From: Neolecta irregularis DAH-3
Taxonomy: Eukaryota
Length of the DNA: 52,506 bases
Direction: 5' to 3'
NCBI GenBank assembly: GCA_001929475.1
Contig: LXFE01000143.1
Location: 1 to 52,506, forward strand
The position numbers and the translations under genes were made by a program. Below the pieces are notes generated by a model. That model worked only from the letters and a program-made list of their open reading frames with translations. It made no database searches and was not told the origin of the DNA. Positions 5,507 to 24,679 of this stretch are shown here, in pieces; within the stretch, counting starts at the first letter, position 1, and the number at the start of each line of letters is the position of its first letter.

Positions 5507-7995
5507 TTAGCCAGTCATTACTCTCTCCAGTTTTGAAGCCCGTAGTTCTTTTAGCCGTGCCTCCATTTCAGGTACAGTGCGAAGATTGATTTCTAAGTTT
5601 TGTTTTTCCTCTTCTAATGCAAGTCGTTTTTCAACGTCCAATTTACAAAACACATACCCTCCATGTCCATCGTACTACCAGTTAAAATAACTCTAGAGGG
5701 CGAAATACTTGTAAAATATAATTGTGATATTTCCATAGACTTTGGCGATGACTTACACTGAGAAGCGTGATTCCCAGTTTAGCAGCATGAGTGTACAACG
5801 TGGTCTCGATATCCATCGACACCGCACTTGTACATTCATCAAGAATAGCATATTTTGGTTTATGATAAAACAAACGGGCCATCGCAATCAAATATATCAG
5901 TATTTGCAAACAAAGATGTATACCCTCTGTTTATCGCCTCCGGAGAGAGCCGAGCCCCATTCTCGTTCAGTGTCCCAACCGCCCTCTCGATCTACGATTC
6001 CTGAAATTTGTAATAATTCGAGAATGTGCATGAGATCATCGTCTGTGATTCCCCGGGCGGTCATTTCAAGACGGGTGTGTGGGTATATTACTTGATCGCG
6101 GAGGGTTCCAAGACACAAGTATGGTTTTTGGGGGATGTAAAAGATATCTTTTGAGTTGGGTTTACGTACCGTGCCGCCGTAAATAGGCCAGAGACCGCCT
6201 AGTATACGGAATAAACTACTTTTTCCTGATCCATTCGGTCCAGTAATGAGTGTATGTTGTCCAGGTTTCACATAAAAATTCAATTTTCGAACGAGTATGT
6301 CCCCGTTTGGTGAGATGATGGGGACGTCATCAAACACGATATCTCGACTGTCAATCACTGTCCCTCGGGATGCTAAAAGTTTACGGTCGGCATTGGTGAC
6401 TAGCTGTTTCTGGAAGTGATCCTTGGAGATATCGTCCATGGTTTCCAGCAATTCTGAAACACGAAGGGTGTATCCAGCAAGTTCGGCGATGTCTTTGTAA
6501 GAGTACATCAACCGCCCGATCGCATCTGAACTGGACAAGAGTAGTCGTCTATTTGTGACAAAACCTGCAATTAGAATTCTTTCAGTCAGGACGGGAATTA
6601 CCTTCAGTCCGACCACCAAGGCTCTTGTTTCCGATACCGGGAACCTTGAAGAACACGGGAACAGCGCACATGACGAGGCCTAGTGCACCCCAAAGATATT
6701 TGATCACGCTCAGGAAGTTAAATTTAGCTCTTCAGGGGAAAACTTACAAATCCTCCATCATTCCATGCCACAACCTTTGACGGAGAATTCTATTGATATG
6801 TTTTATCAATGCAAAGTATCCTCGATCCAGTGCCGTCCGTTCAATTTCATATCCCTGATAGAACGCAATTTCTTCAGAGTAATCGATCAATCGGGTATGC
6901 GTAAATCTGTACTCTCCTTCCAATCTCGCTTCTTCAGCAACATATTTCCCAAAACTAGGATTAAAAAAGGAGTTTTTATTAATAAACCATACGGTGGAGT
7001 TAGTGCTTTCATTACATTTCCACTGAGCTGAATAAGACAAGTCAGTGCAAACAGAGCCTCTGAGCCGACATTTCTAGAGAGTTTCCAATTATAGATAGTC
7101 ATATCGAGAACGGGTTTAGCGAGATTTGAAAAAATCTCCGCCAATGCATTGCTAAATTTGGCAACATCGACAGTGATCACCCTGCCGTGTCAGCCATAGA
7201 ATTCCACAGCGAGCTTACTGATCAGCGTTTTTGATGCGGTCGTCCAGATTAGCCAAAGCATAAAAGGTCATCTTCGAGAGGTATTGTTTGTGAATATGGC
7301 TAGTGAGCCGAGTTCTGTAAGAAATTGCGAGTTTGCATTGAAGAAAGGATATCTAGGTAGGCGTCAATGGAAATAGCAAGTCGGTCAAACCATGGAATTG
7401 GTGTAAGTTGCAGGAACTAAGTATTAAGATCGATTTCATAGCAAAAATATAGAAGTACCGGCGACTATCATCCACCAAAGTAGAGAAATCAAAAATTCTT
7501 TTCCTTTTCCTTTAACCTGGGGATAAGCTTGGATAGGAGATCTCTTTTACAAGCGCAGAAACAATGTGTCCATCTAATTCCGCAACGTATAAAGACACAA
7601 GGGTCCGGAAGACAAGAAATGCAGAGTACGAAGTAAGAAGGCCAAATTCTTTTGTTCGGATGCCAGGAACGACGATCTTTAGCAGTTTGTGCATTCGCTC
7701 AAAGAACGCGCGATTGATCTGGCATTAGAAATTTGTGTTTTTAAGCGCAAACCTCCGCTCCCTGCTTTCTACGACCATGCTTTGGTTTCTGGTCGGCTAC
7801 TGCAAGTCTGAGGCGGTTTATCCGATTATCAGCAAGGAGAAAAGTTGGGGCAGATACTACTGAGAGAATAAGAGTAATCCATGTTGCGCGAGTAATTAGT
7901 GTTCGGTGGAGAAGATATTTTTGAGCAATAGTTCCGAGAACTGAGCGGATATGTTTGTCTTCAAAACTATTACGCAAAGTCGACTGGCTCGACAT
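5507..7995 (-). CDS. PXA2: Peroxisomal ABCD half-transporter (Pxa2/PMP70-like), 11 introns
   Basis: Walker [10 protein letters not shown], signature [35 protein letters not shown]-like [22 protein letters not shown]; two introns need non-AG acceptors. Confidence 0.85.
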
Positions 7996-8627
7996 TATGG
8001 ATGAGTGTGGCGGTGTGGATGTGGGCCATCACAAGCTCGGCCTAACAAAGAATGCAATTGTTTCATCCATACACAAACTATATAATTTGATCTAGAATAT
8101 ACTCTAGAAGGATATGAGGGAACAATACATGTAGGGATTCTGGAAAACCCTTCTGGCCCAGCCCAGGGCAGCAACTGAGACACCAAGTTGGCTCCCCGAC
8201 CCAAATACCCTATGGAATTTGTGTGATGGCGTGATGAGGAGCGATGTTCAGTATCATTAACTATATAAGGAAACTCTATCGGGACTGGCCAGGTAAACTT
8301 ATCACTGTACTTGATGGTATTAGTTACTTCTGTTAAGACTCACGCCCCATATGAGTATAACTGCTCTAGTGTAGATACAGACTTTAGGTTGTCGCGTATT
8401 CAGACTGGGTACTCCTATTAGATTGCTACTGTGAAAAGCCTACCCGTTAAGCGGGGTAGGCTCTCTTTGAATAGTAAATGTACACTACTTGTAAGGATAT
8501 ACTAAAGGTTCCGTGATTTGCATTACTTCTCCGGATGGGTCGTTCAAACACCACACCTGTACTTCTCCGCGATTCCGTAATCCGTCCGCCCCGACTGGGT
8601 TTTTTGCTATCTGTTCTGTGTGCTTTC

Positions 8628-8959
8628 TGTTGGGTAGGTGTGGGGACACAACTTTACCCAACCATCGCAACTCCCGCCAGCTTGCCACCGCCACCGCCCA
8701 ATCATCGGAAGGAGCGCAGGGAGGAGCAAGGGCGCATCTCATCCCAACCGGGCCTGTTACAGGCGTCGCCACCCAGCAAAGCAATAGGGGGGCAGGCAGA
8801 TGACGGTAGCAGCACATATATAAGTAGCGCCCAGCCGGACTAGCTGGCCCGGCTTTCACCTGATATTCAATATACGTAGTTACTCTTACTCGAAGTATCT
8901 ATGTTGGCATATCCAACCAATGTCCACATCAGCACCCAGCCCCAGGTCATGTGCTGACA
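8628..8959. mobile_element. Solo LTR-like repeat, copy 2
   Basis: TG...CA bounded (tgttgg...gctgaca), internal TATA-like tatataag, colinear with 2024-2349. Confidence 0.65.
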
Positions 8960-22462: not shown

Positions 22463-23052
22463 CAGTGTTGGGGGCGGGCCATGGGCTTAGCCCGGCCCAT
22501 TAAAAGCCTGGCCCATCGGCCCATTGGCCAAAACGGGCTTTTTTACGTGAGTCCCTCATTAAATGCCACCAACACCAACTATACGCCTGGCGGCCTGATA
22601 CGGTAACACCCAGCCCTTGCTCGCCCGGAATGCTTATCGGGTAAGGATTGGGTAGCCCCATTGCTGCCCTCGTCACCTACTGTACCTCCTCTGCCTCCAG
22701 AAACAGACAAGCAAGTTGGGCGGGACGGGCAGGCGAGACGGGAGAGTCGGGAGAGTCGGGAGAGGCGGGAGAGGCGGGAGAGGCGGGAGAGGCGGGAGAG
22801 ACGGGAGAGACGGGAGAGGCGGGAGAGGCGGGACAGATGGGGGAGCAGGCGAGACGGGCAGGCAAGGCGGGCAGGTGAGGTGGGTAGGAAGGTTGATAGG
22901 GATGAGACAGGGGAGGGGAAGGCCCTCACCACTGCTACTACTATATACTATCCAAATATCCAAATATTTGACTACTAGGATTTGGTTTATATTTGGCTAA
23001 TTTCGAGCTCATTTAATTTGGTTTGTTGAGATTTGATTTGTTAGGAACACTG
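22463..23052. mobile_element. Non-autonomous hAT/MITE-like element with CAGTGTT terminal inverted repeats
   Basis: cagtgtt at 22463 and aacactg ending 23052; subterminal GGCCC/GGGCC repeats; end homologous to 3262-3327; flanking 8-mers match only 5/8. Confidence 0.5.
22739..22837 (+). repeat. Minisatellite, 11 x CGGGAGAG(G/T/A)
   Basis: Tandem 9-mer read directly; explains the spurious RLS/RRE/GEA/PPL ORFs. Confidence 0.9.
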
Positions 23053-23179
23053 CTGCTGACCCTGTGCTCTGTCCAAATTATGGGCATGGCAGCATCATGG
23101 GGCTGCTGGAGCAACAGGATATGTCATATGATAATTCATGTTAAACAGCCAGTGTTCTGTATTCTAATATAGCCCATTT

Positions 23180-24679
23180 TTATATCATTTTGAAACATGC
23201 CTTCCACATCCCTCCTGCAAGACCATTCCCTATAGAAAGTTTCTCGGCCAAAATACCAGATAAGTTCGCATCAGGCTGTGTGTGAAATAAACCAGCCTGA
23301 ATATACAACTCAAGTACTGCATGTGCTTCAACATCAGTGTATGTTTCGACAGGTATCAATGTAGTCCCATCAATACTGTTGGTCACCCTTTCATCAAAAT
23401 GCTCAAAAGGTGAAGCTTCTTCAGCACCAATAATATGGTTGAGAGTAATATTTTTCTTTGGTTTAGAGGATGTCGTTGCAATAACCGCGCCATTTTTCAG
23501 ATGTCAGAAAGATCTAAAAGAAATGCACTTACTAGCTTCTTGGAACCATTGAGATAGGAGATAAACCATGATGCTAGAGCGAAATCATGTGGATGAATAG
23601 ATTTCAAATCTGCGGTAAAATACTTCGAGGGCACTGACAGAGCGGAGAAATTATCCAAAGTCAAGAGAACACTCGGCCGGTTCTCTTGATTCAGCTGTTC
23701 CATTAATGCCTGTAGAACTTCATAAGAACAGAGAGGATCGCGAATACCGCAACCGATTAATCGAGTAAGGTCATCTCCGAGTTGAATTGTCTTGTTTTGT
23801 CCAAAACTATACGACCGCGTGCATTTAATCTATGCATCAGGATCGAGTGTGGAATTTGGAATACTCCGCCCAAGGCATCCAAATTGGCATCTTTCGTTCG
23901 TTCAAGGAGAGCCGCAGTAAACTGGTGTTGATGATATAACCCGGAATTTTTGTCCAGGGAATAACTTGTTGTATTGTCCACCAATTCAAGCCCTGTAATA
24001 ATGTTCCAATTAACAGGGAAAAAGAGGAATACCTCTAGGAACTGCAATAACTATCCAGTCGTTCATTAGAGCATGTACTTGCGCTTGCAGAAGTAAAACG
24101 CTTTTTCCTGAGCCAGCTGGCCCCGTCAATAAACAGCGTCTCATTTCACTGGAAGCCTTTCCATCCAATCTTTGGCACAAGTCAATCGTTTCATTGCGGA
24201 TCACAGGAGAAAATTGGTAAAAGTATTGAAAGCCTTGACAGGGATGAAACACTTGCAGAGTAGATAGCTTTGCAGTGATCGCAGCAGAAGAAGCCAGACA
24301 GGAACCGCAGAGACTCGAATTTGTCAAAGAATCTTTCAATAACTCCTCGATATCGAGATTCTTTGGCCGTGCTGAGAAAGAACTGGATATTGGATCACAG
24401 CCGAGAGTTGCTTTCAGTAATGACGTCGTCTGAAAGGCCATATCGACTGTTGTCTTGACTTTATTTCCACCGCTGCCCTTGTCTTTCTTTTTAGAGGGTC
24501 CGTATCCCGGCTTGCTTGCTTTTTTCTTTTCTGGATCCAGTCAGTATGAACGCAGTGTAGGCGGTTTGATTACTTGAAGCAACAGCCGGTCCTTTGGCAC
24601 AAACTCGACTTGCCGAGAGAGCTCTGGTGTATAGTTTCAGACTTTTTGAAGCCTGGAGCGATATGCGCCGCAGTTTCAT
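23180..24679 (-). CDS. RSM23: Mitochondrial small-subunit ribosomal protein mS29 (DAP3/Rsm23); 4 introns
   Basis: P-loop LTGPAGSGKSVLLLQ, WIVIAVP, VLLTLDNFS, IHPHDFALASWF; last intron needs a CTG acceptor. Confidence 0.85.

Follow-up and report, generated by a model that had tools for sequence, protein, structure and literature searches.

Several introns of conserved genes in the fungus Neolecta irregularis DAH-3 end in TG rather than in AG. The window analyzed here is the whole of contig LXFE01000143.1 (52,506 bases; an NCBI protein of this organism matched one of its exons with 100% identity), a region dense in very short introns. Four introns in the genes for a peroxisomal ABC transporter of the PXA2/ABCD type (PXA2), telomerase reverse transcriptase (TERT), and the mitochondrial ribosomal protein mS29/DAP3 (RSM23) start with GT and end with TG. 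These introns are probably ordinary U2-type introns of the very short class found in Neolecta and appear to be precisely removed, in what is apparently the main form of the transcript. U2-type splicing at TG was concluded because the bases are present in the DNA, because reading frames and conserved motifs demand their removal, and because contigs resembling complementary DNA (cDNA) lack matching bases.

An earlier note on this DNA had claimed five introns with non-AG 3′ ends. All five strings were found on the minus strand with the coordinates, GT donors, non-AG ends, and lengths of 35–37 nucleotides (nt) that it gave. The observation itself was partly confirmed: recurrent use of non-AG ends held up at four of the five claimed sites and gained one new candidate in an ERV2-like gene, while the fifth, ending in CGG, was not confirmed. 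The sites are the following.

5889-5923, minus strand: PXA2 intron, GT..TTG, 35 nt
7822-7857, minus strand: claimed PXA2 intron, unconfirmed, GT..CGG, 36 nt
15253-15288, minus strand: TERT intron, GT..TTG, 36 nt
15914-15950, minus strand: TERT intron, GT..ATG, 37 nt
23498-23532, minus strand: RSM23 intron, GT..CTG, 35 nt
31194-31225, minus strand: candidate intron in an ERV2/Erv1-Alr sulfhydryl oxidase gene, GT..TTG, 32 nt

Sequence Data and Reference Introns

Contigs of two sequencing runs, X1 and X2, were compared with the window; among the sequencing runs listed, none is on record as RNA. Run X1 consists of DNA contigs with a depth of approximately 380–440. Their letters differ from those of the window at positions 20194 and 20463; the X1 contigs thus stem at least from an assembly of their own. 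At these positions, where X1 reads C and A, respectively, the letter in the window is T, a difference due to errors of assembly or to variation. Position 20194 is the final exon base ahead of an intron, and here the cDNA-like contig of X2 agrees with X1 in having C.

Run X2 behaved as cDNA, in that its contigs carry intron-like skips. Between positions 5000 and 24500, these skips measured 32–43 nt, occurred on both strands, and had GT..AG ends, with one case of GC..AG. The 15 joints listed, of a total of 55, were all short skips at intron-like ends. In addition, the depth reported for each bin, which equals contig depth multiplied by the covered fraction of the bin, was used to infer missing intron bases. 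As controls, five bins with listed joints were calculated in the same way; four agreed exactly and the fifth was off by 0.3, corresponding to one mismatched base at 20194.

A reference set of 45 well-supported AG-type introns was compiled from 14 X2 joints and 31 introns of PXA2, TERT, and RSM23. Donors in this set were GT in 44 of 45 introns and GC in the remaining one, an intron at 11427-11464 on the plus strand (GC..AG, GCATCG donor) that is skipped by an X2 contig. Canonical alternatives to each TG intron were defined as every in-frame, stop-free GT/GC..AG intron overlapping the site. The protein collection searched contained no cDNA-derived protein with 100% identity, NCBI models being the only such matches, and the ABCD genes brought up by a metagenome scan for a closer relative of Neolecta were all distant (at most 65% identity in any segment).

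A TG Intron Before the Walker B Exon of PXA2

The PXA2 exon upstream of 5889-5923 ends in ...LSGGDKQR, where the ABC_tran profile has been reached to position 116 of 137. It is followed by an exon that carries the next motifs of the domain.

5709-5888, minus strand: PXA2 exon of 60 codons with Walker B, D-loop, and H-loop, aligning to 11 of 11 homologues

When the intervening 35 nt were removed, the resulting 706-residue model showed a colinear junction without gaps in all 11 homologues. This alignment comprised 12 of 120 listed matches, the twelfth being the NCBI model from Neolecta, which was excluded from the count. The intron contains no AG, and the closest downstream AG lies at +62. NCBI model P0001 uses the same donor and continues to an AG at 5675; it thereby leads from ...GGDKQR straight into YDGHGG and drops the Walker B exon.

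Depth arithmetic with X2 showed that the exon at 5709-5888 is covered. With a contig depth of 116.3, the three full bins had values of 104.0, 102.7, and 82.5, exactly as predicted from the TG-spliced model. In bin 5651-6301, the 69 uncovered nt are the sum of 34 (5675-5708) and 35 (5889-5923). The observed value of 104.0 for this bin can be compared with predictions of 110.2 for retention, 71.8 for skipping of the exon, and 89.0 for the shortest AG alternative, an intron of 119 nt.

The second site claimed in this gene, 7822-7857, is probably plain coding sequence, since nothing demands an intron there. Its length is a multiple of 3, it is stop-free, and its 12 residues are kept in the NCBI model. 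These residues extend a hydrophobic N-terminal stretch at a place where homologues also carry residues and show no gap. The length of the X2 contig is compatible with both readings (contig end at 7989 or 8025), and a rough calculation suggests that coding sequence will contain such intron-like strings by chance.

Two TG Introns in TERT

The intron at 15253-15288 is flanked by ...EFLQIMHD(G) and (G)NPAYGCFVNPDKSLVNF. With the 36 nt removed, MHDG-NPAYGCF matches GHPEFGCF and GHPEYGCF of the homologues residue for residue. NCBI model P0121 instead has an intron of 114 nt (15175-15288), which deletes the 26 residues NPAYGCFVNPDKSLVNFEITINNHK. The second TG intron, 15914-15950, directly precedes PKLYFAKVDIQACFDTI, and both junctions were colinear with the two homologues P0122 and P0123.

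Interpretation of 15914-15950 depends on a neighboring canonical intron.

16043-16076, minus strand: canonical TERT intron, GT..AG, 34 nt, retained in NCBI model P0121

Removal of 16043-16076 restored a conserved LGASxF..E.Y.KL..FK stretch. If this intron is spliced, the reading frame demands removal of 37 nt at 15914-15950, with an end in ATG; a TG located 8 nt past the predicted branch A is then used, and the AG 7 nt further downstream is not. Because P0121 retains 16043-16076, it is forced into a compensating intron of 44 nt that extends to the AG at 15907. The two frame errors cancel, and the 42 residues between them are in the wrong frame. Conversely, the 44-nt AG version is in frame only when 16043-16076 is retained, and it scrambles LGASxF..E.Y.KL.

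The ratio of X2 depths in two TERT bins was 0.8961, with a range of 0.8943–0.8979 when rounding is taken into account. The revised model predicted a ratio of 0.8971 and the NCBI model a ratio of 0.7443; among 12 single-change variants tried, only the revised model fell inside the rounding range. The 5′ half of the gene, in which depth was lower and uneven, was left out of the arithmetic. At a further TERT intron (15374-15411, minus strand), the donor chosen in the NCBI model lies 6 nt further downstream, giving an intron of 32 nt and adding the residues VS, which are absent from the homologues; here the X2 depth ratio favored the 38-nt version.

RSM23 and a Candidate in an ERV2-Like Gene

In RSM23, the exon at 23533-23829 corresponds to positions 104–203 of the Pfam DAP3 profile and the open reading frame (ORF) at 23183-23497 to positions 205–309 of 311. 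Since the profile continues across 23498-23532, both pieces belong to one protein and are joined at this site. NCBI model P0125 continues into the intron sequence and ends after 354 amino acids, and use of the only AG within 23498-23532 would give a 19-nt intron and a stop. Two X2 bins of this gene agreed on the contig depth (117.31 and 117.24) only when 35 + 35 nt were taken to be missing; read-through gave 110.65. For a 77-nt AG alternative, a value of 97.1 was predicted, as compared with 104.7 observed. A sequence search of the PDB with the C-terminal RSM23 ORF gave no match.

The new candidate, 31194-31225, has a GTAAGC donor in phase 2 and joins ...NWEGRHG(R) to WIKLFHTILARFPEKPT. The ORF that encodes the ERV2-like domain begins with TGG right behind a TGA stop. 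It matched Erv2 (1jr8) with an E-value of 1.3e-28, and the Evr1_Alr profile aligned over positions 5–77 of 93 from residue 3 of the ORF onward. The 32-nt GT..TTG intron is the sole short solution, and the four in-frame GY..AG options found would each delete 19–24 residues. The nearest branch motif is less clear than at the other sites, lying 17 nt from the end, and the site is outside the 5000-24500 stretch on which X2 contigs were compared.

Common Properties and Frequency of the TG Introns

At the four supported sites (5889-5923, 15253-15288, 15914-15950, and 23498-23532), three further claims of the earlier note were borne out: retention leads to a stop or a frameshift, the TG junction restores a conserved motif by being colinear with homologues or with a single Pfam model, and a suitable in-frame AG is lacking nearby. 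The number of in-frame GT/GC..AG alternatives was 3, 13, 17, and 18 at these sites and 4 at the ERV2-like site. All of them were 54–223 nt long and cost 6 to 62 residues (at least 6 at each of the four sites), as compared with 32–43 nt for the reference introns.

Apart from their last bases, the TG introns resembled the AG introns around them. The four supported introns and the ERV2-like candidate, in order of position, all start with GT (GTATAC, GTACTT, GTAAGG, GTAAGT, and GTAAGC) and end in TTG, TTG, ATG, CTG, and TTG. Lengths ranged from 32 to 37 nt, as compared with 32–43 nt (median 36) in the reference set. A branch-like motif close to the end had been noted at all five sites originally claimed, and the predicted branch A was indeed 8, 7, 8, 8, and 6 nt away from the 3′ terminus. 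Among these, the supported introns have the predicted motifs CTGAT (8 nt), CTGAT (8 nt), CTTAC (8 nt), and CTGAC (6 nt), in keeping with the class, for which a YTRAY motif with its A approximately 5–10 nt from the end was taken as typical. In AG introns, the predicted branch A lay at a median distance of 7 nt, mostly 6–9 nt. AG dinucleotides were located at −21 for 15253-15288, +7 for 15914-15950, −16 for 23498-23532, and −5, −7, and +10 for the ERV2-like candidate.

Three of the 39 AG introns with a recognizable branch motif contained a TG 2–3 nt before the AG that was passed over. This observation indicated that AG is chosen over TG if both can be reached and that TG serves where AG is lacking. 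The earlier proposal that the 3′ site is picked by its distance from the branch point was consistent with the AG-like geometry and with use of the nearer TG at 15914-15950; it requires the qualification that TG is not equal to AG. The accompanying statement that only a terminal G is needed was too broad, as all well-supported ends are TG and the sole non-TG case (CGG) failed. As a whole, the earlier interpretation was partly supported: right in outline, but with a scope limited to TG instead of any NG.

PXA2, TERT, and RSM23 together contain 4 TG introns among 35, a proportion that applies to genes chosen because they have TG introns. The approximately 4% of non-AG ends given previously rested on an uncounted total of about 125 introns; a crude gene finder that allowed only AG yielded 121, and 4–5 cases per approximately 120–125 introns correspond to roughly 3–4%. 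Homology-free scans of the window for further non-AG introns, by ORF bridging, codon usage, and three dynamic-programming gene finders, gave a signal that was inseparable from noise, and no rate was drawn from them. A finder that allowed any 3′ end returned 46 non-AG introns with 15 different dinucleotides, and one with loose AG rules linked an entire strand into a single gene. Among the candidates of a chain-joining scan, TG (32) was not the commonest end (TT, 41; AA, 37).

Alternative Explanations

If the NCBI models were right, only AG sites would be used; PXA2 would skip its Walker B exon, TERT would be short of 26 residues and contain a divergent stretch, and RSM23 would be truncated. Canonical GT..AG paths of this kind exist and were chosen by the annotation pipeline. 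However, the sequence that these models skip or leave unread forms intact ORFs, which could be aligned with homologues or with one common Pfam profile, and the models need introns of 114–249 nt, as compared with 32–43 nt in the 45 reference introns. They also disagreed with X2 depth in all three genes (71.8 expected and 104.0 observed for PXA2, ratios of 0.744 and 0.896 for TERT, and 110.65 as compared with 117.24 for RSM23), and we consider this explanation highly unlikely. The TG ends might also reflect errors of assembly or sequencing, or a minor allele where the true or major sequence has AG. The differences between the window and X1 at 20194 and 20463, which point to an imperfect assembly, as well as the loss of rare variants from contigs, are in line with such an origin. 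The k-mer assembly of X1, at a depth of approximately 380–440, nevertheless gave the same letters at all sites, its contigs covering the five originally claimed sites with no differing letter, although X1 may equal the read set from which the assembly was made. Moreover, four to five separate errors (A-to-T, A-to-C, or similar), each exactly at position −2, are not credible, and an origin of the TG ends in errors or minor alleles is extremely improbable.

The minor spliceosome processes U12-type introns, in which the 3′ site is chosen by branch distance and other terminal dinucleotides are tolerated. A U12 identity of the TG introns would account for their varied ends, and the window contains more copies of the U12-like donor motif RTATCCTY than expected (18 as compared with 7.4; none of 100 shuffles reached 18). 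None of these 18 matches, however, coincides with the 5′ end of a TG intron, and the 5′ splice site and branch-site motifs that define U12-type introns are absent from the TG introns. Their branch motifs (CTGAY/CTTAC) are those of the AG introns and lie 6–8 nt from the end, a distance shorter than that in U12 introns. To our knowledge, ascomycetes have no minor spliceosome, and an Rfam scan of the 52,506-nt window gave no match. A U12 origin thus has next to no probability. The RTATCCTY matches themselves occurred in contexts without a U12-like branch site, and at least one of them is plain coding sequence. A last alternative accepts splicing at TG, but only as a minor, leaky activity: most transcripts would keep the intron or be spliced wrongly and be degraded, leaving the cell dependent on a small correct fraction. 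Contigs show presence and not proportions, and in human genes TG sites are reported to be alternative only and never the sole site (PMC2374985). Against this stand the X2 contigs, in which the intron bases are missing at full gene depth, and the bin depths: a retained form of equal depth would have raised them and does not fit the observed values; predominantly leaky use of TG is unlikely.

Several points weigh against precise splicing at TG as the main form. The possible identity of X1 with the assembly's own reads reduces its independence, and X2 is catalogued as ‘DNA?’. None of the five claimed sites was among the 15 listed of 55 X2 joints; RNA support for the four confirmed ones consists of the depth arithmetic, which uses rounded bin values and presupposes that each gene region is represented by a single contig of uniform depth. 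The homology argument for TERT involves the two homologues retrieved, and the depth ratio is also compatible with a parallel 3-nt shift of both TERT TG introns. Homology alone lets the ends of the RSM23 intron and of TERT 15914-15950 shift by multiples of 3. Finally, none of the 14 best-supported readable X2 joints was TG, and the true rate may be below that in the three chosen genes.

Comparison With Known Systems and Proposed Mechanism

In the literature searched on Neolecta introns and splicing and on GT-TG or other non-AG introns, no such description was found, nor any lineage with GT-TG introns at the percent level; the main text of the Neolecta genome paper is silent on introns and splicing, and its supplements may hold annotation details. 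Szafranski et al. (2007, PMC2374985) describe TG 3′ sites in human U2-dependent introns as alternatives only, with an AG at most 28 nt away and never as the sole site, and report that human AG-to-TG mutants were not spliced at TG. The Neolecta introns share with these sites the GT..TG boundaries, the use of the major spliceosome, the NTG ends (TTG, CTG, and ATG), and the retained terminal G. They differ in that TG is apparently the main form, in essential conserved genes, and in that 5889-5923 is itself free of AG and is followed by the first AG only at +62. At the other four Neolecta TG sites, an AG is present no more than 28 nt away on one side. With human TG known only as an alternative beside AG, a sole TG acceptor at the percent level would be new.

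Saccharomyces cerevisiae without Prp18 offers a second comparison (Roy et al. 2023, PMC10711555). In that mutant, BG sites and sites 7–9 nt from the branch point are used, the natural minimum being 10 nt. Prp18 and Slu7 are described as dispensable at a short distance between branch point and 3′ site, and Prp22 as proofreading in the absence of Prp18. The mutant has a severe growth defect and its junctions are mostly unproductive. A branch-point ruler and a need for contact with the first base of the intron would be common to both systems; in Neolecta, TG is used at 6–8 nt from the predicted branch A. In contrast to the mutant, TG use in Neolecta would be a wild-type property that gives productive messenger RNA, and the normal branch distance in Neolecta, approximately 7 nt, is already below the yeast natural minimum of 10 nt.

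A manually corrected annotation of Ganoderma lingzhi reports RNA-supported GT-TG (0.024%), GT-GG (0.041%), and GT-CG (0.021%) introns (PMC11590231). Non-AG NG acceptors are thus on record in another fungus; the 4–5 cases per approximately 120–125 introns in Neolecta are about two orders of magnitude more frequent and comprise TG only.

We propose that the 3′ site in Neolecta would be set mainly by a near-fixed, short distance from the branch A of approximately 6–8 nt, in keeping with the median of 7 nt in AG introns. The G at −1 may retain its contact with the first intron base, and A at −2 would be preferred, with U tolerated if no AG is within reach. Compared with yeast and human, position −2 would then be proofread less tightly during exon ligation. 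The use of TG might stem from the lineage-specific alteration or absence of a second-step fidelity factor (Prp18, Slu7, Prp22, or a surface of Prp8).

Other Features of the Window

A gene for a Zn2Cys6 transcription factor is located at approximately 3930-5431 on the plus strand and has a canonical 32-nt intron within its zinc-cluster motif. The tail of this intron resembles that of the PXA2 TG intron (CTGATATATTTG). A TG candidate examined in the same gene (3982-4015, plus strand) turned out to be this canonical GT..AG intron of 32 nt.

Short interstitial CCCTAA runs of the telomere type occur at 10650-10690 and 2640-2662, and reads appeared to be cut at 10653-10689. X1 depth climbed from approximately 430 to approximately 8,500 at 8255-8905 and was 2,200–3,200 at 21926-23227, which indicated multi-copy elements. 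Many loose contig ends were found at 22463-22508, and 22719-22833 consists of 12.8 copies of the 9-nt tandem repeat GGCGGGAGA.

Implications

All three NCBI models that were checked are wrong: P0001 skips an exon, P0121 combines a deletion of 26 residues, by which a TERT motif is lost, with a frame-shifted stretch of 42 residues, and P0125 has a premature stop. These proteins are wrong because gene finders allow only AG. Similar errors are likely elsewhere in the Neolecta genome, a common resource of fungal phylogenomics; if TG splicing is as frequent as it appears here, a sizeable share of public Neolecta gene models would be wrong at TG sites.

Few rules of pre-mRNA splicing are as firm as an AG at the 3′ end of the intron; human TG sites function only next to an AG, and yeast uses non-AG sites only once Prp18 has been removed. 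We lean slightly toward the view that Neolecta is the first described lineage that routinely uses TG as the sole 3′ site in several percent of its introns, those of essential genes included, owing to a branch-point ruler of 6–8 nt and weakened checking of position −2. If this is true, Neolecta would provide a natural system in which to study how position −2 is read in the second step of splicing and how the 3′ site is set by its distance from the branch point.

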